This document shows positions 4,556 through 45,887 of a stretch of 64,000 bases of DNA, one piece after another. A program made the position numbers and the translations under genes. This stretch comes from Escherichia coli (GTDB taxonomy: Bacteria; Pseudomonadota; Gammaproteobacteria; Enterobacterales; Enterobacteriaceae). The notes below the pieces were generated by a model, which was not told the DNA's origin, ran no database searches, and worked only from the letters and a program-made list of their open reading frames with translations. The DNA lies in NCBI RefSeq assembly GCF_050920415.1, contig NZ_CP169309.1; one strand, 5' to 3'. Within the stretch, counting starts at the first letter, position 1, and each line of letters opens with the position of its first letter.

Positions 4556-5032
4556 ATGAAACTCATCAGTAATGATCTGCGCGATGGCGATAAATTGCCG
4601 CATCGTCATGTCTTTAACGGCATGGGTTACGATGGCGATAATATTTCGCCGCATCTGGCATGGGATGATGTTCCTGCGGGAACGAAAAGTTTTGTCGTCA
4701 CCTGCTACGACCCGGATGCGCCAACCGGCTCCGGCTGGTGGCACTGGGTAGTTGTTAACTTACCCGCTGATACCCGCGTATTGCCGCAGGGGTTTGGCTC
4801 TGGTCTGGTGGCAATCCCTGATGGCGTGCTCCAGACACGTACCGATTTTGGTAAAGCCGGATACGGTGGCGCAGCGCCGCCGAAAGGCGAAACCCATCGC
4901 TACATCTTTACCGTTCACGCGCTGGATGTAGAACGTATTGATGTCGATGAAGGAGCCAGCGGCGCGATGGTCGGGTTTAACGTTCATTTCCACTCTCTGG
5001 CAAGCGCCTCGATTACTGCGATGTTTAGTTAA
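4556..5032 (+). CDS. ybhB: PEBP-family kinase-inhibitor homolog YbhB
   Basis: 158-aa ORF MKLISNDLRDGDKLPHRHVFNGMGYDGDNISPHLAWDDVPAG...; lies on the bio side of attB(lambda). Confidence 0.9.
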   Translation: MKLISNDLRDGDKLPHRHVFNGMGYDGDNISPHLAWDDVPAGTKSFVVTCYDPDAPTGSGWWHWVVVNLPADTRVLPQGFGSGLVAIPDGVLQTRTDFGKAGYGGAAPPKGETHRYIFTVHALDVERIDVDEGASGAMVGFNVHFHSLASASITAMFS

Positions 5033-5394: not shown

Positions 5395-6435
5395 TTATGC
5401 TCTGCTTGATTCAGTGATTTTGGAATCCTGCATTTTAGTAATCATACCCATAATTTTATGCCTAAGCTTTTCCATTGGGTTTTCGATTAGATAAAAACTT
5501 ACCGCCCCAACTAAGATTGATGCTACCATCGTTGCTATATACATATAGAAACTGATTCCTACGTACCACACACCCATTGCTAGAATCAGGAAGTGCCATA
5601 GGTATATAGAGAAGCTCCATTTACCAATGTAAGACATTAACGGTGTTGACAGAGCCCAAGCAAATACACCTTCTCCATAGCTCATTAGCAGAACAATGAG
5701 TCCAAATATTGGCGCATAGAAAATAAATTTGTTGAGAACCCATCCATCAGTAAACCCACCAGTTAACTTCCACATAACTTTAGGCAGTGCAATAAGCATT
5801 GATACAATAAAGAACAGGAAGGCTATATCAGACAACTCTTGACCAATTTTAAGGAAATTATCGTGATAGAGAAATGCTGCAATCATTCCGCAAGCAAACA
5901 GTGGGAAATACCACATCACCATTCCGCCATACGCACTATCCATCGCAGGGTACAATCCCTGTAGCAATACAGCCAGTGCGAAAATAAGGAATGCCGCTGC
6001 TTTTCCATTGTACACTTTTTGAATTGCGACACCAGCATACGCAAAGAATGGAAGTATGAAGTAGAATTTATACTCAATTGGTATTGTCCAGAAATGAAGC
6101 ACGGCCTCTTTCATCGTTATGATTGAGATTGCCGTATTCAAATCAAAATACCCAAAATATGAATACACGAGAACAGCTATTGCGAACACCGGAAGGATTC
6201 TCATTGTTCTTCCAAGGAAATAACTTAAAAGAGACCGCCAGGAAAATCCGGTAGAAATAAATCTACTGGTTAGCAAAAATGCGCTGAGAACAAAGAATAT
6301 CCAAACACCAAACTGTGAACTTCCACCAAGCATAACCTCATACTCATGAAAATATATTCCTGTAGCGTGGGCTATTATTACAAGGAATACCGCTATTGCC
6401 CTTAGTCCATCAAGAGACTTGATTTTACCTTTCAT
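5395..6435 (-). CDS. acyltransferase-3 family integral membrane protein, probable O-antigen acetyltransferase (lysogenic-conversion type)
   Basis: ORF 5395..6522; multi-TM product with LDGLRAIAVFLVIIAHA motif near N-terminus; AT-rich; last gene before att, as oac in Sf6. Confidence 0.7.
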   Translation of the reverse strand: MKGKIKSLDGLRAIAVFLVIIAHATGIYFHEYEVMLGGSSQFGVWIFFVLSAFLLTSRFISTGFSWRSLLSYFLGRTMRILPVFAIAVLVYSYFGYFDLNTAISIITMKEAVLHFWTIPIEYKFYFILPFFAYAGVAIQKVYNGKAAAFLIFALAVLLQGLYPAMDSAYGGMVMWYFPLFACGMIAAFLYHDNFLKIGQELSDIAFLFFIVSMLIALPKVMWKLTGGFTDGWVLNKFIFYAPIFGLIVLLMSYGEGVFAWALSTPLMSYIGKWSFSIYLWHFLILAMGVWYVGISFYMYIATMVASILVGAVSFYLIENPMEKLRHKIMGMITKMQDSKITESSRA

Positions 6436-6518
6436 TTCTTTCCCAGATATGGAGTGAACATCTGCGAAAATGTAGCACATTTCAAGGTAAACAAGAAGCG
6501 CATCCATGCGCATTTTCA

Positions 6519-8438
6519 TCACCCTGCCTTGGTGTATGTCCAGTTAAATGTTGTTGTTCCCTGGCTTGTGATGGTTACAATCCTTCCTGTCACTGTAAAT
6601 GATATCAACCCTCCTGACTTAAGCGGAGTTAAAGTAAGTGTTGTTCCGTCCCACATGGCAAGCTGAAGCGAAGAGAAATTTGTTCCACTGCTTTCTGCCC
6701 AAACGCTTATCAGGTACATCCCTTGGCTATTTGGCAGTTCAAACAACGTAGTTGCTACGTTAGCTGCAACAGCCTGAGTTCCTTTCGCTGTGTACACTGC
6801 TGGCAACTGATTACCTGCAGAGCTTCGTGATTCAACATATGAGCCTGAAGTTTGCGTCCCAGTTAATGAGCAGTCAGTAAATACTCCATTCCCTGTGCTG
6901 TAAGTTGATATTACAGGAGTCCCACCAGTCGGAGCCTTAAACCGGCATCCCTCAGCAATTATTTTTGCTGTTGAGTCTGTCAGCAATGTGTTTGGGTATC
7001 CAGAGCCAGTGTAGGTTATTGATTCGCTATCAAGGAAGCTATCGGTACTTGATTTTATGTTAACAATGCTTGTGCCTGTTGCAAAGATAAATGCTGCTGT
7101 CCCACTCCCCGTTGTTTGCATTGAGTTTCCATGCCCGGCCAATCCTGATATATGGGCAATAGTATCATTAAGTTTTATATACGACGCAGTAATTCCATTT
7201 GTATTTTTTATTATATTAGACTCACCATCATACCCTGTAATAGTAAGACACTTACATCCAGAAAAATATAACCCTGAGGAATCAAATGTATATTGCGACC
7301 CGTCAACTGTGATCTGGTCTCCTGCACAGTTTATTAGCTGAGGAGACAGGCAATTTACAACATACCATGCCTGTGCTGCATCCAGCACATAACATGTATC
7401 CCACTGTATTGTCGTTCCGTTCGCCTTATAGAAACCATGTGCAACTCTCCTCGCCCATACCTGGGTATACTTTGTTAGGTAATTTCCAGAGTCATCATAT
7501 ATGGCCCACCATGCACCATCAACCTCAACATTTTTAATGTGCATAACGCCTGGTGAAGTAGTTCCTCCATCAATTAGAATGCCAATTTTACCATCATTGC
7601 CAGTAGGTGATGTAGGGCGTCCTCCATCGTAAAAAATATAGACATTTTCAATATTTATTGTATTAAACGCTGCGTGGTAATGGAAACAAGCTATATTTCC
7701 TATTACTGCTATGAAAGTTTCCGGCCTATTTATGTTGCTGTTTGTTTCGCCATTTATTGTGCAGTTTGAATTCATCTCTATCGTTGCATTTACGAAGTAA
7801 GTTCCAGATGTCAATAATACATTCCGCCCTGTATTAATTGCGGCCTGTATGCCTGCATAGTCAAGAGACTGAGTTAGTGATGTTACGAATGGATAAACAG
7901 CCTGCGCCGCTGATAGTGTGGAGAATTTCTCGCTGAGTGGATGCAGAGTTCCGTCAGCTGTTGCACCGAAATCCTTGGCTGAAATGAAGTTGGTATTTTT
8001 ATCATGTTGAGTTAAAGCTATTGAGCCGATATATGGCTGCTTAACTGCAACTAGTGCATCTCCCATTCCATCAGCATCGCTTTCTAACTGCTGCTTAAAC
8101 TGATCAGGGTCATACTTCAGCACATTAGGAAAATAGAACTGCCGTGCACCATACGCATTATATACAGCCATAGAATGGCCTTGCACAGTTACGAACTTGG
8201 CAATCTGTCCGTTATATACAGGGTAACCAGCGGCGTTAATGATGATTGGTTGCGAAACAGGAACGTGAGAGCCGTCTTCGTTCTCTACATAAACCTGAAT
8301 CTGGTTTTCTGGATTTACTGGGTACGTGTCAATTTTACCGATATAAATTTTGCCATTGGCAACCGCTTTAAAAGAACGCGCCATAGTGAAGAGTTGCGAA
8401 GGCATGCTTACCACAACATTTGCGGTGATATCTGACAT
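6519..8438 (-). CDS. tailspike protein with P22-like N-terminal head-binding domain and divergent C-terminal receptor-binding domain
   Basis: ORF 6519..8486; from ATG 8438 reads [61 protein letters not shown]..., matching the P22 gp9 N-terminus; SD GGAG upstream. Confidence 0.85.
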
Positions 8439-12304: not shown

Positions 12305-12838
12305 TTAAAACAACGAGCCAAGCAATCCGATACCAGCACCAATGCCAGCGCCCCAAGGCGTTGATGTTCCCAAAAGGCTGGCAAGACCTGCACCGGCAAT
12401 CGCACCAGACGTGCCACCGCTAATTGCAGTCTGAAGACTTGATGGTTTATTGGCATTAGCAGCGGCAAGTGCTGCGCTTTGCTGTGCAATGCTGCTCATG
12501 TTGTTGGCGTACGTCTGCCCGGCGTTTGCCTGACCTTGCAGCGCACCAAGCCCAACGTTTGCCAGATTGTTGTAATTGCTCATCTGGTTTGATAACCAAG
12601 ACTGACCGAGTGTAGGCGCGATTGTAGCCAGTTGATTGCTTGTGGCTGTCGAACCAAGTCCTCCCGTAGCCTCCGCAGCAGCAAGACTCTGGTAACGAGC
12701 CTGACCTGCAAGGTCTTTATACTGCTGAGAGTTGTAATACTGATTAAGTGCCTGCCCCTGACCTTCTAAACTGGAAAGGTTCTGAAGCTGGTTAACATAC
12801 TGCTCCGCAAGAGGCGTGAACGGAGCAAGGTTTTTCAT
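12305..12838 (-). CDS. ejection protein, P22 gp7-like (C-terminal 177 aa; see finding on split gene)
   Basis: ORF 12305..12865; ATG at 12836-12838 overlaps stop of upstream 53-aa ORF in ATGA arrangement. Confidence 0.55.
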   Translation of the reverse strand: MKNLAPFTPLAEQYVNQLQNLSSLEGQGQALNQYYNSQQYKDLAGQARYQSLAAAEATGGLGSTATSNQLATIAPTLGQSWLSNQMSNYNNLANVGLGALQGQANAGQTYANNMSSIAQQSAALAAANANKPSSLQTAISGGTSGAIAGAGLASLLGTSTPWGAGIGAGIGLLGSLF

Positions 12839-12996
12839 GATCGTCTGCCACTGCTGATTTTGCAATCTGCAGCATACTTCTGAGCTTCTGCTGCATACTT
12901 TGCGCTTTTATCAGAGCTGCCACCTTTCCCGCCTTTTTCAGGGCAATAAGGTTCCTCGCCGCGCAGTTTTCTGCCCAGCTTAAATGCATATAACAT
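12835..12996 (-). CDS. 53-aa ORF (MLYAFKLGRKLRGEEPYCPEKGGKGGSSDKSAKYAAEAQKYAAD...), possibly the N-terminal part of the gp7 homolog
   Basis: ATG at 12994-12996 with SD GGGAGA; not in ORF track (under 60 aa). Confidence 0.4.
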   Translation of the reverse strand: MLYAFKLGRKLRGEEPYCPEKGGKGGSSDKSAKYAAEAQKYAADCKISSGRRS

Positions 12997-12998
12997 GG

Positions 12999-13457
12999 CT
13001 ATCTCCCGTGATTCAGGAAGTCGATTAGTTCTTCGCGTGTGGCGCTGTAAAAAGTCACGTCATCCACGCCTTTGAAGTATTTCTTGATGGTTCCTACACG
13101 CTTAAGGCCAATCATTGCGCAGTACATCTGACCGTGGCGGAATTTGCGTGCGGCGAACGATGTGACACACTGGACGGTGGTGTTAGTCAGAATGTATCGC
13201 CAGAACGCCAGCCCAATTTCCTTGCTGAAGCCGCGAATCTCTGGCAGGTACATGGCGTGGCAATCGAATGTCAGCGGCTGAATCTCCTGATAGTAAACAA
13301 TGCCGCCGAACTGCCCGTGCACGTTCACCTCAAAGTAACGGCAATCAGGTTTGTAGTCGTATCCATCACCGTTGTTGCTCCCGGCAATAATGTCAGGGTG
13401 ATTTCCGACTGCTTCGATCAAGTCGATGTTTCGCGTTGGTTTGAACTGAATCATCAC
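12999..13457 (-). CDS. head assembly protein, P22 gp14-like
   Basis: 152-aa ORF; synteny between tail needle and gp7. Confidence 0.6.
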
Positions 13458-14302
13458 TGCTCCGCAATGATTTTGATGGTTGTGGCAGTAAACGCCGCAC
13501 CATTTGACTGAATGGTTAACGTACTGCCATTTGTGGCAAGAAAGCCGTCTTTATCCACGCTGAAGAACGTAGCTAACAGGATGTTATCGGTTGTTGTCGC
13601 CGAGTTGCGACTGCTTACCAGTGTGTCAGGAACAGAGCCGGAAAAGCTTAGTTGCATTGACCTGTTGGCGGTTCCGCTGGGCCACGTCCCGACGATCGAC
13701 AGCTTGAAGAACAAGGTTTTGTTCTCGTTGAACACAACCATCTTGTTGTTAACGGTGTCGAAGAATGGTGTCAACGAGCCGGATGACGGCGTGAGCGTTT
13801 TCAGTAGGCTAACAAGGTTGGTCGGCGCTGTCGGAATGGTTACTGATACGCCAGAGTAAACAACCTCTGACTTCTTGCGCGTGGTTGCATAATCCAGAGC
13901 ATCAATGCGCGATTCATGATCTGAAACCTGCGATTCCAGCGACTGAACTCTGGTATCAAGCGACGCAATATCGCTTTCATTCTGAGCGATTCGCGTTTCA
14001 TGTTCCTGAAGAGTTGATTCTGCCTGGCTGATTCGCTCCTCATGATTAACAAGCGTTGCTTCCGCAGCAGAAATTCGCTGCTCATGGTCAGCGAGAATCA
14101 CATCCTGCTCATCGTTCCTGACCTGTGCATCATAAGCGCCCTGTCCGGCCTCGTTGGCCTTGTTAGCCACGTTACCAACATCAGTACCTTGCGCGATAAC
14201 GTACAGCAGATACGACTGCGAGAAGATATTGCGTGGAAGGACTGATGTATCGAGCCGCGTAGCCTGGATGATTACCGGCACATTGAGATTCGAATCCGCC
14301 AT
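13454..14302 (-). CDS. tail needle protein (P22 gp26-like N-terminus, extended C-terminal knob)
   Basis: [43 protein letters not shown]...[20 protein letters not shown] matches gp26 N-terminus; 282 aa vs 233 in P22. Confidence 0.8.
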
Positions 14303-15720
14303 TACTCAATCCTTATCTGAGCGCCAGACAGAGTTACAGGTGACTTCGTGATAACGCGCAATTTGAAGCCGACATTTTTCCTGATGCGCCCGACACGCTT
14401 CCACAAAACGCGTTTGTCGTAAACGAACGGTTCATTCTGCTCAATCATCTGCTCACGACCGTAATTTATGCCGTCAGTGGTTGCAGAGAGGAACAGGCGG
14501 TCGGCGTACTGCGCAACGCCAGTTGAAGATTCAACTTCAAGGTCGAAAACTCTGGCGTTATCTGCTTTGAACAAAGGAGTAAACAGCAGGTGTTCCTGTT
14601 GCTTGTCGTACTGACTGCTGATATCGAACTGCAATTTCCCGGTCACGGATTCCAGCTTATCGCCGCACGTTATCTGATTGCCTTCGTAAATGAAGTCGAT
14701 AGCGCGGTACACATCGTCATACAGGCCTGTTTTCAGCACACACCATTGCGGACCATTGGCGCTTGAAGATGCGTCGTACACCAGAACATGGCGCGGAAGA
14801 TGGATAATCAGCAGCTCATGCGCATCAAATCGCAGAGACTCCATCACACCATCAGCCAGTTCATCAGCAGTGTAGGAGCGGAGAATTTTCTCAATGCTCG
14901 CGCTGGCGATTGGTGACACCTGACCGGAGCCAATGATATACACAGACGGCGCACCTGTTGCCGGATTGCTGATAAACGCATAAGAATCAGCGAATGGCGT
15001 TTTGCAGTAAGTCCCGGCAATGCCTTTCTGCACCATCAGCGATGGCTGGGCGACATACAAAGCAGAACCAACGGTGGTTGCACCAGTCAGGGAAAAATAC
15101 TCAATCGTCGAAGAACCAAAGCAGACGATGAAGTCTCGCCATGTCCCGATACCGATGATGCCGTCCGGCTGCGATTCTGCGCGATATTGTGCACTGTATC
15201 GGTCAGGGTGCGATTCGTCTTCAGGGTCAGTGATAAACCATGAATCAGTTCCGTCTTTTGACCACGCATAACGCCCACGTAAGCGCGTAATGTCGCGAAC
15301 TGAACCTAACTCGTACTGTGTGAATCCGCTGTCTGTAGGCCAGTTTGAGACGGTTTTAACCGTGCCATCATAGCGATACTCGACCAGTTGACCATTAACG
15401 CCTATCGCCTGTGATGTCCGACCATGCGCCATTGATACACGACCACTTCCGTCAACGTCACCGACTTCACTTTCTCCTTTGTACAGCTTGCCACCGCAAA
15501 CGCGATAAACAGCATTCTGCGCCATGTTGTACTCGACACCGCGCGATACACCATTCACATCAGAGCGTTTGGCAATGCCCGGGAATGAGCGAAGATATCC
15601 GCTGCTGTTGAGGATTTCTTTGGGTGTAGCCAACATATTCACTGGCAGATAGTCGATATAGTCGGCGTTTCGGAAATCTTTGCCGACACCTTTCATGAGC
15701 GGAAGTTGCTGAATCGGCAT
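14302..15720 (-). CDS. head completion / DNA stabilization protein, P22 gp10-like
   Basis: 472-aa ORF; synteny after gp4. Confidence 0.75.
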
Positions 15721-16197
15721 TATTCGCTCCCGTTATCGCAAGGTTCCTTTCGGTGGAAGTAATTCCAACCGTTCCACTTCGCCAACTGGTTACCGCTACC
15801 AACAGGCATACGGTTTGGATAACCGGACTTACATTTAGCGGCTTTTGCTCTGTCCATTGCAGACAGTTTGACGAGTCGCTCTTTCCCGTATCTGGCAGTG
15901 GTTATAAGTTTTGCAGGCGCTTCCAGCGCATAATCCGGTGCAATGCGGCAGGCAAGGTTGAAAATGACAGCATTGATAGCGTTATTTGATAAACCGTGCT
16001 CATCGCCCGGATCTGGAGCGACATCTGCATCAGCGAAAATGTAGCCAACGTTGATACCAGGTGACACATCACCGCCAAGCCATTCAGCCATCATCATTTC
16101 AAGGTCGTTGACGCCGTCTTCCATAGACTGCGGTTCGACATCGGTTAACGTGGCATTTGATGCCACACCGAGCTTACGTAATGCCGCAAGAACTAAA

Positions 16198-16220
<23 letters not shown>
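15720..16220 (-). CDS. head completion protein, P22 gp4-like
   Basis: ORF 15720..16316; from ATG 16220 reads [47 protein letters not shown]... resembling gp4 (166 aa). Confidence 0.8.
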
Positions 16221-16458
<238 letters not shown>

Positions 16459-18722: not shown

Positions 18723-20889
18723 TTATTGAGGTGTCTCGGCTACTCCGCCGGAGGGGATTTGAACTTGACGCATAAGATTCGCGAAATCCATGCGTTGTGA
18801 ATGAGTCTGGTCTGCATCTTTAAGAAGCAGCTCAGCGTTAGCACGAGCATCTTTGCTGCGCTGTTGCTGGAATTGACCTACGAGCTTGAGGTACTCACGC
18901 AGTTCTGCCTGCTTGTCGAGGTCCATATTGTTGAAGATTTCTGCAATCTTCGCGGCGTTGAGTTGGTTTTGGGCTTCAACCTTGGCGGCTTCAACCTGAA
19001 TCTGCGCCTGTTGGTTCTCTGCCTTGATCAATTCAGCCTGACCTTGCAGAAGGATACCCTGCGCCTGAATTTGCTCTGCTGATGGCTGCTGCGGCTGCTG
19101 TTGCGCCTGTTGCACCATCTCCATCTCTTCAGGTGTTTCTGGTTTCTTCAGCCACATCATCACCAGTTGCTTGTTCGCGTACTCTCGCATCATCTCGAAC
19201 GCCTTTACCGTCAAGCAGCGTGAAGTATTGCAACATCAGCATCTGGAACTCTGGAGTACCTTGCGGAACCTTGGTGAGTAACTCCTGAATCTCTGCGCGG
19301 TTCTGTTCCTTCATACTCTGGAAGGATGGTCCAACGTCGGTATAGCACTCATAGCGACCGCGAATGTCGTTGAGTGTGACCACATTACCGGACTGGTAAT
19401 CTACAACTTGCGCGTAGAGTTGAACGTCTTTCTCGCTACCATCTTCAAGTGTCAGCGTTACATGACGAGGAACGTCATAAATATCATTGACCATTGAAGC
19501 ATAAATCTCGCCATCACGTCGCATTGCGGTAGCAAGGTTATCCTGAAACACGTATGTCTCAAGGTCTGCCCGCATGTTCAGTTGATTGACGGTATCGAAA
19601 GCGACCTGAGAGTTTGCTGCCTGCGCATCCACACCAAGACTAGCCACCTCTTTCACTGCGTTGGTGGCAGCCTCAAGCATGTAAGCGTTGGCTTGCGGCA
19701 CTTCAGGGTTTTCCATGTAGGAGATTGGACCAATCGGCAGGTCGTTGCCGTTTTCATCGGTCCTGTTCTGCAGATAGTACGGATAGTCATCATTTCCACC
19801 GTACATGTATTCGTAGCCTTCGATTTGCTCAGGGAAGAAGGTCGGTTTCTTCTTCGGTGAACGAGCAACAATATCGGCGTTGAATGACATGATCATGTTA
19901 CGAAGGCGTTGACCGTCTTTCGTCAGCCTTACCACTCCTTCGTAGCACTCCTTGTCACCAGCGAATGACCATTCGCCATATACTGGAACGATTGGAATAT
20001 GCTCTCCGGCTATCTTCTCGCGGTCTTTCAGTATCTGCGTGCAGGTGACGATCGACTTATACACACGCCGACGCTTCACCTTGCGCTCTGCTACCTTAAT
20101 GAATCCACGATTAGCCAGGTCGTCGATGACGTCTTTGATATCCTGCTGGTAATAGCTGACCGGCTCACCTGTCAGCGGGTCGCGGTAGATGAAGACTTTC
20201 TCTTTCTTCTCTTCGACCTCGTAATACTCAGCGACGTAGACGACATCATTCGATACCCACGGAAACAGCCATGTATCGTTTGGATTCTGGAAAGATGGCA
20301 GCGTGTCCGGATCAATACCGTAATCCTCTGCGAACTCTTTCCAGCCATTGCGCGACAAGGCGTTAATCACCGTGCAGTGCTTAGCGTCGCTCTTATCCAT
20401 CTGCTTGCTGTTGGCGTCCCATATGACGTGTGAGCAGGCTTCATGGATTGGCAGGCGTCGGATTACCTGATTGTTGCTTGTTGGATCGTTGTCTTCGTAC
20501 TGCGTGACCAGACGCCATGCACCAACGCCTGACTCTATCTGCTCACGAACGCCAACGTTAACGGCAATTTTTGCCGTATTATGGCGCATATCAGTACGAT
20601 ACATCCCCATCAGCACATCGGCAGCATCAGGATTAGCGCCGTCTTTTGGTCTGAAGAGAACATCGATAGGGTTCCGGCGCATCTCTGCGACCAGCTTCCT
20701 GACCACCGGGCGAACAACATCGAATTGTCCGCGATATTGCAGGGTGGTGTAGTTTGATAGCCAGTCATCCCATTGCGACACTCGGCTAAAATACAGGTCA
20801 TTTGTCGCCTCGGTTCTGGCTTCATCGCTCGCCATCCAGTCTGCGTCAAACTTACACAGAATGGAATTGAGTCTGTTTTCGTCGGCCAT
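18723..20889 (-). pseudogene. portal protein gene (P22 gp1-like) split by a +1 frameshift near 19197
   Basis: ORFs 19129..20889 (586 aa) and 18723..19214 (163 aa) overlap by 86 nt in different frames; junction GKGV|[10 protein letters not shown] is restored by removing one nt; span 2167 nt = 3n+1. Confidence 0.7.
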
Positions 20890-22387
20890 TTAAGTTCTCC
20901 GTGCGATGGGCCTGATTGGGGCTGGTATCTTTTTCTCTTTTGGCTTTTTGATGTCGCGCATCATTTTTGCGAAGCGGCGCATCATGTATGCATAGCGAAC
21001 GGCGGATAGCACGTCGTCGTTAAGCTTGACGATTTTCCCGTTTTCATCACGGTGATAGAGGCGGAACTCCTCAAAGAATGGCTCACAGGTGTTGAATACT
21101 TTGAAGCGACCGTCGAGCATCATGTCTCGCAATTCAGTGATGCCAGGCTCAACAGCGTTACCGCCATCAGGCCATGTCGCATGCTCCTGCAACATCATAA
21201 ATCCAGCGTCCGCATACTGCCCTTTGAGCTGCTCACCGCCGCCCTTCTCGTGCTGGTTTCCGTCATGAGGCCATGCGGTTGGCACTTTATGCGCCCATGG
21301 TTTAACAGCTCCCCACGCCTGAACGGCTGTCTTTTCTTTCGCCTTCCAAACGCGTGAAAGGTAGATTATGTCTGCGTCCTTATCCCACCAAAGCTGAACC
21401 TGCGCCTGCGGGTGATCCCATCCGAAATCCATACCGCCAATTACGTAGAAGTGATCAGGACACTCGAACGCTGACACTTAATCGTCTCTTCCGGTATCTG
21501 GAAGATTCGACCACTACCCATCGTAGGAATACCGCGAGCACGCGCCTCTCTCTCATGCTCAGGATAGGATGCGATGATTTGCTCTTTCTGCTCGTCGGTG
21601 TAGTGCTCAGCGTCATAGATGGTCATGTTGACCACTTTCTGAGACTTGCTGGGATTCTTCAGGAACTTGGTAACAACGTCAGACATCCCCATCAGCGGGG
21701 TAAACGTCAGAATTGAGAATTGCCCGTATTTGTTGGTACGGGTAAGACCTTCGCCATAAATGCTGTATGGTGGCTCTTCGTCAAACCACACGCCGTGGAT
21801 TGTGTCACCCTGCCAGCGAGCACGGCCTTGCGAGTATGGTTTGAAGTAGCAGATTGAAATGCCATCTTCAACGCCATCAGCCGTGTGATGCTTAACCAGA
21901 AGATGATCAACAAGGTTCGGAAAGAAAGGAGACTTCTTCCAGCTAATGATGTCTTCTTTCGGTATGGAACGTAGCCTGGCTCACCATTCTCTTCGATACG
22001 ACCGCACAGGATGCGTTGAGTCGTTTTGGTTACAGTCTCGTTTGTCTCTCCACCAATCCAGAAGACAACAGGCTCATAGAAACGCTTACCTTTCCACTCA
22101 CCGCCATATTTACCATCAGCAGGATAGCCTTTTGTGCCCGGATAACGACCGGTAAGGTGAAACGCGACTTCAGCAGCACCAGTAAATGACTTACCAAGCT
22201 GGTTACCAGCCATAAAACATCGCTCTGGATAGTCATGCCCGGCGTCGATGAACTCACGCTGCTTGCTGTATGGCGTAAATTCATATAGCAGGTGTGTGTT
22301 CCGGTAGTTCTCTTCTTCTTCGAGTAGCTCGAGCAACTCGATTTGCTCTTCGTCGCTCAGGTTATCAAGAATCGCGTCCAGTTCCAC
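20890..22387 (-). pseudogene. terminase large subunit gene (P22 gp2-like) split by two -1 frameshifts (near 21957 and 21478)
   Basis: Three consecutive ORF fragments (21707..22387, 21441..21791, 20890..21477) in three frames; span 1498 nt = 3n-2; WFDEEPP motif in middle fragment. Confidence 0.7.
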
Positions 22388-22853
22388 GGTTGAATAGCTC
22401 CTTGATACGAGAGCGCCGCTTATCGCGATCTCCCTTATCAGGTGTCACGTCTTCAACTTGCGACTGCTCTTTGAGGCCCAAATCACGGGCGATGATGTTA
22501 GCGTTGAGAAGGTCAGCGGCTGCGCCAGAGAATTTCTGGTCGTAGATGACCTGTTCTGCTCGCGTAACGACTTCAGATAAATCTTCTCGCAGGCGATATG
22601 TGCGCCATGTTTCAAGCGTCACATCAATGAACAGAGTGAGGCCGGTAATGGTCATCGCTCGCATCTTGGCGATAGGCTCTTGTATTACTTCACCCTGATA
22701 CGAGAACGCCTTCATCTCCCATAGCGGGTTAGCTTCCACCCACTCGAAGTATTCACAACAAGCAGCCCACAGCGCCTCAGGCGATTCGAATTTAGGATTT
22801 CGCCCATGACTACTGCGGGCCTCCCAAAATCGGTTGCCCTTTGGTGCTGCCAT
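22365..22853 (-). CDS. terminase small subunit, P22 gp3-like
   Basis: 162-aa [49 protein letters not shown]... Confidence 0.85.
22565..22586 (-). promoter_or_regulatory. pac site (headful packaging initiation) inside small terminase gene
   Basis: Minus strand reads GAAGATTTATCTGAAGTCGTTA, matching the P22 pac sequence as recalled. Confidence 0.55.
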
Positions 22854-34932: not shown

Positions 34933-35820
34933 TCAGGCTGCCAGATCATTGTTTCCGATGGAAGCATAATAAGCTTTTTCTGCTTCTGCCGGAGGAGTAT
35001 GGCCCAGCCTTCCCAGCAATCGTCGATTGTTATACCAGTCCACCCACGTGAGTGTGGCCAGTTCCACTTCTGCACGGTTTTTCCAGCTCTTACGGTGTAT
35101 TACCTCCGCTTTGTAAAGACCATTGATGCTCTCAGCCATCGCGTTGTCATACGAGTCGCCTGTACTCCCTGTTGATGCCAGCAGTTTTGCTTCTTTTAGT
35201 CGCTCCGTATAGGCCAGTGACACATACTGAGAGCCTTTATCGCTGTGATGGATGGTGCCAGACGGACGACGGGCCCACAACGCCTGCTCCAGCGCATCCA
35301 GCACGAATGTCGTTTCCATAGACGATGAGACCCGCCACCCCACGATGTATCCGGCAAACACATCAATGATGAACGCCACATAGACGAAGCCCTGCCATGT
35401 GCTGACGTAAGTAAAATCAGCCACCCACAGCTGGTCAGGACGTTCTGCCACGAACTGACGGTTTACGCGGTCACCTGTGGCAACGGTTTTCCGGCTGACG
35501 GTAGTGCGGACCTTTTTACCCCGGAGAACACCGGCAAGTCCCATAACCGCCATGAGGCGCGCCACTGTACATCTGGCCACCCTGATTCCTTCCCGTAACA
35601 ACTGACGCCAGACTTTACGCACACCGTACACCTGATGATTTTCATCGTATACGCGCTGTATCTCTCTCTTCAGCCAGTCATCGCGCTGCGCACGGGCACT
35701 GCGTTTATCAGGATGATGCCGCTGCTGCTGACAATGGTAATACGTTGACGGGGCGATATGCAGTTCACTGCATACCGGTCCGACCCCGTACTGCTCACGC
35801 AGCTTATCCAGCAGTGGCAT
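34933..35820 (-). CDS. IS3-family transposase OrfB (DDE integrase domain)
   Basis: 295-aa ORF with DDE-type catalytic region; overlaps orfA end as expected for programmed -1 frameshift fusion. Confidence 0.85.
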   Translation of the reverse strand: MPLLDKLREQYGVGPVCSELHIAPSTYYHCQQQRHHPDKRSARAQRDDWLKREIQRVYDENHQVYGVRKVWRQLLREGIRVARCTVARLMAVMGLAGVLRGKKVRTTVSRKTVATGDRVNRQFVAERPDQLWVADFTYVSTWQGFVYVAFIIDVFAGYIVGWRVSSSMETTFVLDALEQALWARRPSGTIHHSDKGSQYVSLAYTERLKEAKLLASTGSTGDSYDNAMAESINGLYKAEVIHRKSWKNRAEVELATLTWVDWYNNRRLLGRLGHTPPAEAEKAYYASIGNNDLAA

Positions 35821-43202: not shown

Positions 43203-43421
43203 ATGTACTTGACACTTCAGGAGTGGAACGCTCGCCAGCGACGCCCAAGAAGCCTTGAAACAGTTCGTCGATGGGTGCGCGAATGCAGGATATTCCCTCC
43301 TCCGGTTAAGGATGGAAGAGAATATCTGTTCCACGAATCAGCGGTAAAGGTTGACTTAAATCGACCAGTAACAGGTAGCCTTTTGAAGAGGATCAGAAAT
43401 GGGAAGAAGGCGAAGTCATGA
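43203..43421 (+). CDS. xis: excisionase Xis (lambda-type)
   Basis: 72-aa ORF MYLTLQEWNARQRRPRSLETVRRWVRECRIFPPPVKDGREYLFHESAVKVDLNRPVTGSLLKRIRNGKKAKS matches lambda Xis. Confidence 0.95.
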   Translation: MYLTLQEWNARQRRPRSLETVRRWVRECRIFPPPVKDGREYLFHESAVKVDLNRPVTGSLLKRIRNGKKAKS

Positions 43422-44469
43422 GCGCCGGGATTTACCCCCTAACCTTTATATAAGAAACAATGGATATTACTGCTACAGGGACCCAAGGACGGGTAAAGAG
43501 TTTGGATTAGGCAGAGACAGGCGAATCGCAATCACTGAAGCCATACAGGCCAACATTGAGTTATTTTCAGGACACAAACACAAGCCTCTGACAGCGAGAA
43601 TCAACAGTGATAATTCCGTTACGTTACATTCATGGCTTGATCGCTACGAAAAAATCCTGGCCAGCAGAGGAATCAAGCAGAAGACACTCATAAATTACAT
43701 GAGCAAAATTAAAGCAATAAGGAGGGGGCTGCCTGATGCTCCACTTGAAGACATCACCACAAAAGAAATTGCGGCAATGCTCAATGGATACATAGACGAG
43801 GGCAAGGCGGCGTCAGCCAAGTTAATCAGATCAACACTGAGCGATGCATTCCGAGAGGCAATAGCTGAAGGCCATATAACAACAAACCCTGTCGCTGCCA
43901 CTCGCGCAGCAAAATCAGAGGTAAGGAGATCAAGACTTACGGCTGACGAATACCTGAAAATTTATCAAGCAGCAGAATCATCACCATGTTGGCTCAGACT
44001 TGCAATGGAACTGGCTGTTGTTACCGGGCAACGAGTTGGTGATTTATGCGAAATGAAGTGGTCTGATATCGTAGATGGATATCTTTATGTCGAGCAAAGC
44101 AAAACAGGCGTAAAAATTGCCATCCCAACAACATTGCATGTTGATGCTCTCGGGATATCAATGAAGGAAACACTTGATAAATGCAAAGAGATTCTTGGCG
44201 GAGAAACCATAATTGCATCTACTCGTCGTGAACCGCTTTCATCCGGCACAGTATCAAGGTATTTTATGCGCGCACGAAAAGCATCAGGTCTTTCCTTCGA
44301 AGGGGATCCGCCTACCTTTCACGAGTTGCGCAGTTTGTCTGCAAGACTCTATGAGAAGCAGATAAGCGATAAGTTTGCTCAACATCTTCTCGGGCATAAG
44401 TCGGACACCATGGCATCACAGTATCGTGATGACAGAGGCAGGGAGTGGGACAAAATTGAAATCAAATAA
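43399..44469 (+). CDS. int: integrase Int (lambda-type tyrosine recombinase)
   Basis: 356-aa ORF MGRRRSHERRDLPPNLYIRNNGYYCYRDPRTGKEFGLGRDRRIAITEAIQANIELFSG... matches lambda Int. Confidence 0.96.
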   Translation: MGRRRSHERRDLPPNLYIRNNGYYCYRDPRTGKEFGLGRDRRIAITEAIQANIELFSGHKHKPLTARINSDNSVTLHSWLDRYEKILASRGIKQKTLINYMSKIKAIRRGLPDAPLEDITTKEIAAMLNGYIDEGKAASAKLIRSTLSDAFREAIAEGHITTNPVAATRAAKSEVRRSRLTADEYLKIYQAAESSPCWLRLAMELAVVTGQRVGDLCEMKWSDIVDGYLYVEQSKTGVKIAIPTTLHVDALGISMKETLDKCKEILGGETIIASTRREPLSSGTVSRYFMRARKASGLSFEGDPPTFHELRSLSARLYEKQISDKFAQHLLGHKSDTMASQYRDDRGREWDKIEIK

Positions 44470-44603: not shown

Positions 44604-45887
44604 GTGAATACATTTTCAGTTTCCCGTCTGGCGCTGGCATTGGCTTTTGGCGTGACGCTGACCGCCTGTAGCTCAACACCACCCGATCAACGTCCTTCTG
44701 ATCAAACCGCGCCTGGTACCTCTTCTCGCCCGATTCTGTCGGCAAAAGAAGCGCAGAATTTCGATGCTCAACACTATTTTGCGTCCCTGACGCCGGGCGC
44801 AGCATCATGGAATCCATCACCGATTACTCTGCCTGCACAACCTGACTTTGTTGTCGGCCCGGCGGGTACTCCGGGTGTAACGCATACCACGATTCAGGCG
44901 GCGGTAGATGCGGCAATTATCAAGCGCACCAACAAGCGCCAGTATATTGCCGTGATGCCTGGTGAATATCAGGGAACGGTGTATGTCCCTGCCGCTCCGG
45001 GTGGAATTACTCTGTACGGTACAGGTGAAAAACCGATTGATGTGAAGATTGGGCTTTCCCTTGATGGGGGCATGAGCCCTGCCGACTGGCGTCACGACGT
45101 CAACCCGCGCGGCAAATATATGCCAGGTAAACCAGCGTGGTATATGTACGATAGCTGCCAGAGCAAACGCAGCGACAGTATCGGCGTTCTCTGCTCTGCG
45201 GTCTTCTGGTCACAAAACAATGGCCTGCAACTGCAAAACCTGACCATCGAAAACACGCTGGGTGATAGCGTAGATGCGGGTAACCATCCGGCGGTGGCAC
45301 TGCGTACTGATGGCGACAAAGTGCAGATCAATAACGTCAACATTCTCGGTCGTCAGAATACATTCTTTGTCACCAACAGTGGTGTGCAAAACCGTCTGGA
45401 AACCAACCGTCAGCCGCGTACTCTGGTGACCAACAGTTACATTGAAGGGGATGTGGATATCGTTTCTGGTCGCGGCGCAGTGGTGTTCGATAATACCGAA
45501 TTCCGCGTGGTGAACTCACGTACTCAGCAAGAAGCGTATGTGTTTGCACCGGCTACGCTGTCTAACATCTATTACGGTTTCCTCGCCGTAAACAGCCGTT
45601 TCAATGCTTCCGGTGATGGCGTGGCGCAACTGGGCCGCTCGCTGGATGTTGATGCCAATACCAACGGTCAGGTGGTGATCCGTGATAGCGCCATCAACGA
45701 AGGTTTTAACACGGCTAAACCGTGGGCCGATGCGGTGATTTCCAATCGTCCGTTTGCGGGTAATACTGGCAACGTTGATGATAACGACGAAGTACAGCGT
45801 AATCTGAATGACACTAACTACAACCGCATGTGGGAATACAATAACCGCGGCGTGGGTAGCAAAGTGGTTGCAGAGGCGAAGAAGTAA
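44604..45887 (+). CDS. ybhC: outer-membrane lipoprotein YbhC (pectinesterase-like)
   Basis: 427-aa ORF MNTFSVSRLALALAFGVTLTACSSTPPDQRPSDQTAPG... with lipobox LTAC. Confidence 0.93.
   Translation: MNTFSVSRLALALAFGVTLTACSSTPPDQRPSDQTAPGTSSRPILSAKEAQNFDAQHYFASLTPGAASWNPSPITLPAQPDFVVGPAGTPGVTHTTIQAAVDAAIIKRTNKRQYIAVMPGEYQGTVYVPAAPGGITLYGTGEKPIDVKIGLSLDGGMSPADWRHDVNPRGKYMPGKPAWYMYDSCQSKRSDSIGVLCSAVFWSQNNGLQLQNLTIENTLGDSVDAGNHPAVALRTDGDKVQINNVNILGRQNTFFVTNSGVQNRLETNRQPRTLVTNSYIEGDVDIVSGRGAVVFDNTEFRVVNSRTQQEAYVFAPATLSNIYYGFLAVNSRFNASGDGVAQLGRSLDVDANTNGQVVIRDSAINEGFNTAKPWADAVISNRPFAGNTGNVDDNDEVQRNLNDTNYNRMWEYNNRGVGSKVVAEAKK

Follow-up and report, generated by a model that had tools for sequence, protein, structure and literature searches.

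The 282-residue protein encoded at 13454..14302 on the minus strand raises two questions, namely what kind of phage tail part it is and whether its C-terminal half helps to set the range of hosts that a phage can infect. The window, by which we mean the whole stretch of 64,000 nucleotides of Escherichia coli DNA that was analysed, had already been the subject of a preliminary description, in which this gene was read as a tail needle with an N-terminus like that of P22 gp26 and a knob like the one on the Sf6 needle. Our analysis leads to the conclusion that the gene product is a tail needle of Sf6 type from a P22-like (Lederbergvirus) prophage, with a probability of about 0.97, and none of the sequence, profile and structure comparisons run gave a result that contradicts this identification. 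The reading frame runs from an ATG start over 282 codons to a TGA stop and is open on the minus strand only; a plus-strand reading of 13454..14302 was rejected, as its translation is interrupted by many stops along the whole segment. Several elements of the preliminary description were recovered in this frame. The peptide quoted there, ending in SMQLSFSG, corresponds to aa 169-222; the C-terminus is indeed rich in Ser, Thr and Asn, which together make up 36% of aa 140-282 vs 21% of aa 1-139; and the difference in length from P22 gp26 (233 aa) is 49 residues, as had been noted.

The gene occupies the position of Sf6 gene 9 and P22 gene 26 in a P22-like late operon, between a gene for a gp10-type hub and a gp14-type gene. 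Upstream of it, at 14302..15720 (minus strand), lies the gene of a tail hub or head-closure protein of 472 aa, homologous to P22 gp10 and Sf6 gp8 and 98.3% identical to Sf6 gp8 and 98.5% to IME10 gp10. Downstream, at 12999..13454 (minus strand), a DUF2824 protein (PF11039, E=3e-53) is encoded, the homolog of P22 gp14 and Sf6 gp10, with 98.7% identity to Sf6 gp10 and 97.4% to the IME10 gp14 homolog. Further upstream, a head-to-tail adaptor homologous to P22 gp4 is found at 15720..16220 (minus strand); from the ATG at 16220 it has 166 aa and is 99.5% identical to IME10 gp4, and in sister contigs it is called as a 166-aa PF11650 P22_Tail-4 gene. The order gp4-gp10-needle-gp14-gp7-gp20-gp16 is that of Sf6, and the order around the needle is the same in five independent contigs. 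Neighbouring genes of this series overlap by 1 nt: the ATG of the needle gene shares one nucleotide with the stop codon of the gp10 homolog (TAATG), and its own stop shares one with the ATG of the DUF2824 gene (TGATG). These overlaps at both ends constitute the tight packing that is expected of a phage late operon. An AAGGA motif is located ~8 nt upstream of the needle ATG.

Against gp9 of Shigella phage Sf6 the protein is identical at 273 of 282 positions (97%), in an ungapped alignment of two chains of equal length. From Sf6 to the window, the nine substitutions are R92S, D100E, S113A, T131S, E137D, T176S, A178T, T219S and S270A. At the DNA level, identity is 95.5% with Sf6 gene 9 and 96.5% with the corresponding gene of Escherichia phage Louie, which is named "tail needle knob" there, and the codon comparison with Sf6 gene 9 gives 29 synonymous vs 9 non-synonymous differences, all 9 conservative. 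Sf6 gp9, whose knob is available as PDB 3RWN, also shares with the window needle the three-part plan, the operon position and all residues that bind glutamate and phosphate. The needle is therefore an already known and named protein whose knob structure has been solved. Exactly these 282 aa can already be found in NCBI, for example as EGE64290.1, "MULTISPECIES: tail needle knob protein [Escherichia]", and its 90%-identity protein cluster has 3620 members. At least 80% of the gene is present in 474 of 5426 complete E. coli genomes, under the annotation "tail needle knob protein" in the records listed. It is an allele almost identical to a phage part that has been characterised both in structure and by genetics, and beyond correct annotation its significance is slight; it serves as a marker that places the prophage in the Sf6-needle subgroup of the P22-like phages.

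The first of the three parts, the N-terminal virion-binding domain (aa 1-60; 14123..14302, minus strand), is the one to which the literature attributes the plugging of the portal channel. It is 100% identical to Sf6 gp9, and in the PDB a gp26 fragment of 62 residues (8EAP chain B) matches it with E=1.8e-27. The second part is a coiled-coil shaft (aa 61-139; 13886..14122, minus strand) that aligns to the helical core of gp26, with five substitutions vs Sf6 gp9 and an HExRI motif that recurs at aa 73, 87, 101 and 129. Single-sequence AlphaFold2 predicted one long helix over aa 42-141, with a pLDDT of 82-94 over aa 61-130. The third part, the C-terminal knob (aa 140-282; 13457..13885, minus strand), is a TNF-like jellyroll of the Pfam family Phage_tail_NK according to PF16532, PDB matches and an AlphaFold2 model. 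PF16532, "Sf6-type phage tail needle knob", is matched over aa 108-282 and over its whole length (profile positions 1-175 of 175) with 379.9 bits (cutoff 27 bits) and E=1.7e-114, and aa 130-282 match the knobs of Sf6 (3RWN, E=6.7e-89) and of the E. coli prophage HS1 (4K6B, E=1.9e-88).

The single-sequence model of the full 282 aa was unfit for fold comparison (pLDDT 57, knob <50), and the knob was modelled as aa 120-282 from a 13-sequence alignment, for which knob homologs were gathered from 11 phages; this model has a pLDDT of 87.4 and a pTM of 0.80. In a Foldseek search against the PDB the six chains of 4K6B and 3RWN came first (TM 0.88-0.93, rmsd 1.6-1.7 Å, E about 2e-26), followed by TNF-family EDA-A1, PRD1 vertex protein P5, the phi812 central spike knob, BclA and C1q heads; the 50 structure matches listed include no gp26 chain. 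The structure prediction proposed in the preliminary description thus gave a knob model that can be superposed on the crystal structures of both the Sf6 and the HS1 knob. In the HS1 knob, L-glutamate contacts E181, K235, S283 and D285, and phosphate is held by the triad S266-R267-N268 (Leavitt et al., PMC3741392). After subtraction of 35 to pass from HS1 to Sf6 numbering, the window needle is seen to retain every glutamate-contact residue (E146, K200, S248 and D250) and the complete phosphate triad (S231-R232-N233). E146, K200, S248 and R232 do not vary, and D250 hardly varies, in the 13-sequence alignment, which spans Lederbergvirus, Murrayvirus, Autographiviridae, Straboviridae, Ackermannviridae and a jumbo phage. 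Only four substitutions separate the knob from that of Sf6, all conservative (T176S, A178T, T219S and S270A), and this divergence of 2.8% lies inside the 4.9% maximum for knobs of P22-like phages (PMC3741392). Taken together, the identity to Sf6 gp9, the PDB and Pfam matches, the superposition of the model and the conserved ligand residues bear out the proposal of an Sf6-like knob on a gp26-type needle.

How this tip relates to that of P22 had to be described anew. P22 gp26 has the same gene position, the same plug function and a homologous plug domain and coiled-coil core, and the match of the N-terminal ~60 residues to gp26 stands (49/60 identical, 82%). The similarity, however, does not end there: it continues to aa 138, with 32/76 identical residues in aa 61-136, and BLASTP aligns needle aa 1-138 with gp26 aa 1-140 at 83/140 identical (59%). 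No significant BLASTP alignment of the needle with gp26 was obtained beyond aa 138, and the sequence and structure comparisons run gave no P22-type C-terminal fold. Residues 141-233 of gp26 have no counterpart in the window needle, which carries the TNF-like knob there instead. The description of a C-terminal domain ~50 residues longer than that of gp26 is thus replaced by another one, in which about 144 unrelated residues stand in place of 93 residues of gp26 (aa 141-233). The alternative is a P22-type tip that has received an insertion, and nothing speaks for it beyond the common N-terminal half. The sequence comparison is against it, since the BLASTP alignment stops at aa 138/140; so are the gp26 entries of the PDB, which reach aa 155 at most (2POH, 3C9I and 4ZKP align over aa 1-155, 4LIN and 4ZXQ over aa 1-137), and the structure search, whose 50 listed matches comprise the knobs of Sf6 and HS1 as well as TNF-like folds, but no gp26 chain. 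We consider the probability of such an insertion negligible, and it was rejected.

A replaced tip, as opposed to an inserted segment, can be followed in the phages nearest to the prophage. In the flanks of the needle gene the nearest phage backbone is that of IME10, with 95.8% nucleotide identity, and the DNA alignment with IME10 is lost at ~13456-14100, that is, over everything after about codon 67 of the needle. The needle of IME10, an HK620-like phage, has 233 aa and a P22-type tip, and aligns only to aa 1-141 of the window needle. HK620 itself had been suggested earlier as a comparator for the knob, a role for which it does not serve, being devoid of an Sf6-type knob; of the needle gene, only nt 1-224 are matched by HK620 gene 26. 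As the flanks are ~98% protein-identical to IME10 and IME10 has a P22-type tip, the needle locus represents, relative to that phage, a clear module swap as judged from the sequences compared, and it offers a clean example of needle-tip module swapping.

Regarding function, the near-identity to characterised proteins suggests that the needle would be a homotrimeric fibre. Its N-terminal ~60 residues would insert into the hexameric gp10-type hub and plug the portal channel, and in this way the packaged DNA would be retained; aa ~61-139 would form a trimeric coiled-coil shaft, and aa 140-282 a trimeric TNF-like jellyroll knob with three molecules of L-glutamate at the subunit interfaces and a phosphate at the tip. 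In the needles described in the literature, homotrimers place their N-terminal hairpins in the hub and plug the channel, and packaged DNA leaks without them; the needle extends past the tailspikes and is expected to be the first part in contact with the outer membrane, and particles that have ejected their DNA are devoid of it (PMC3741392, PMC9728967). Sf6 gp9 has been modelled in the cryo-EM map of the Sf6 tail (PMC9728967). By analogy, the tailspikes would cut the O-antigen, the knob would be the first part to reach the outer membrane, and release of the needle would then open the channel for the ejection proteins and the DNA. By the same analogy, the tip domain would tune the rate of DNA delivery and would not set host specificity.

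This last point touches a suggestion of the preliminary description, in which the knob was given a possible role in host range. A knob that binds a receptor and determines the host would fit its place as the most distal part of the tail and its fold, which is that of the receptor-binding knobs of adenovirus and PRD1 (PMC3741392). It would also fit a survey from 2013, in which the occurrence of Sf6-type knobs was confined to the P22-like phages of Escherichia and Shigella (PMC3741392). However, P22 chimeras that carry Sf6 or HS1 knobs infect Salmonella normally, which contradicts the suggested role; virion function was apparently unaffected by mutations that were predicted to prevent the binding of glutamate; and the effect of some other alterations of the needle tip was to slow the release of K+, that is, to change the kinetics of DNA delivery (PMC3741392). 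In addition, Sf6 has been described as recognising its host by means of the tailspike in combination with OmpA and OmpC (PMC9728967). Based on the normal chimeras, the silent glutamate mutants and the slowed K+ release, the knob appears to tune kinetics and not host range, and we regard a host-determining knob as unlikely.

The needle of HS1, the second with a solved knob (4K6B), shares Ala270 with the window needle, where Sf6 has Ser. It has 317 aa and a coiled-coil shaft 35 residues longer (PMC3741392); the needle of phage JEP4 has the HS1 length, unlike the window needle with its short Sf6 shaft. Homologs of the knob, 35-55% identical to it, were also found at the C-terminus of otherwise unrelated proteins of Autographiviridae, Straboviridae, Ackermannviridae, Murrayvirus and jumbo phage PBECO4; those read from outside the P22-like phages were sortsyn, MR4, Kpn BU9, Reminis, Miller, 44RR2.8t, Se-N, PBECO4, phiDP23.1 and PEi26. 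These proteins, which consist of a knob or end in one, differ from the window needle in that they are devoid of a gp26-type plug domain and are encoded in other genomic contexts, and resemble it in their PF16532-type domain with invariant E146, K200 and S248. In Kpn BU9 the knob gene comes directly after the large terminase gene, and in MR4 one small ORF lies between the two.

The needle belongs to a P22-like prophage that extends over ~5.4-44.5 kb of the window and is inserted between ybhB/bioA and ybhC (chromosomal flanks ybhB, 4556-5032, and ybhC, 44604-45887). This position in the bio-gal interval corresponds to the lambda attB region. A lambda-type integrase with an Arm-DNA-binding domain and a Phage_integrase domain is encoded at 43399-44469 (plus strand), and no tRNA gene was found in the 64-kb window; the insertion site is of lambda type and not a tRNA. 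The chromosomal flank is at best 98.3% identical to the E. coli ybh-mod-gal region. The prophage itself is mosaic. For the scaffold, coat, gp4, portal and large-terminase segments, identity to IME10 is 97-100%, except that over its N-terminal 178 aa the large terminase reaches 89%; the small terminase has diverged further (82% identity). The needle belongs to the Sf6 type, as does the gp16-type ejection protein. Unlike Sf6, it combines head genes of HK620/IME10 type with a different tailspike. That tailspike, of 639 aa, is encoded together with a following gene for an Acyl_transf_3 membrane acyltransferase, as recognised by Pfam, at the end of the prophage (5395-8438, minus strand); Pfam recognises in it the P22 head-binding domain only (aa 1-113). 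The pair presumably resembles the arrangement in Sf6, where the tailspike is accompanied by the O-antigen acetylase (oac), and it could represent a module for serotype conversion.

Whether the needle is used in this host is a separate matter. An intact sister prophage (L020, GCA_048027635.1) occupies the same attachment site and shares 99.958% identity with the window prophage over 18.85 kb. The only gaps relative to it are four 1-bp indels in the window prophage, each of which causes a frameshift: one near 12864 in the gp7-type ejection protein (12305-12996, minus strand), one near 19199 in the portal (18723-20889, minus strand) and two, near 21470 and 21970, in the large terminase (20890-22441, minus strand). 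With these four frameshifts, needle trimers may never be built into virions here, and the intact needle gene would then be an idle relic of a defective prophage. That all four gaps with such a close relative disrupt the terminase, the portal and gp7 favours this possibility, as does an IS3-family transposase ORF (rve and HTH_21 domains) in the early region (34933-35820, minus strand), a further sign of prophage decay. In the same sense, not one of the 16 chromosomal genes in 43-64 kb has an ORF shorter than its annotated counterpart, and this speaks against a uniform rate of sequencing error. On the other hand, three of the four indels fall in 2-nt homopolymers, where some sequencing chemistries also produce indels, and with four events the contrast between prophage and chromosome is weak (roughly P = 0.03, by our own estimate). 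We give about even odds to a true defect, the alternative being assembly errors, and see the evidence for and against an idle needle as equally balanced. The defect bears on the use of the needle in this host and not on its identity as an Sf6-type needle.

The allele itself carries minority states at five positions (S131, D137, S176, T178 and S219), where Sf6 and most of 12 other members of the cluster have T, E, T, A and T respectively; the comparison with these members showed nothing beyond this. The needle gene stays intact in a prophage with frameshifted packaging genes. One could speculate that the surface substitutions retune the interaction of the knob with the membrane or the kinetics of DNA delivery, or that the intact tail genes of a decaying prophage are kept for recombination with incoming P22-like phages or for their complementation. 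We judge this highly improbable.

A minor observation concerns the region ahead of the tail genes. Between the coat gene and the gp4 homolog, a small ORF contains a perfect tandem repeat of GAGCCA (coding strand) in 7.7 copies at 16268-16313, which encodes (Glu-Pro)n; the corresponding array of IME10 is one unit longer, so its length is variable.
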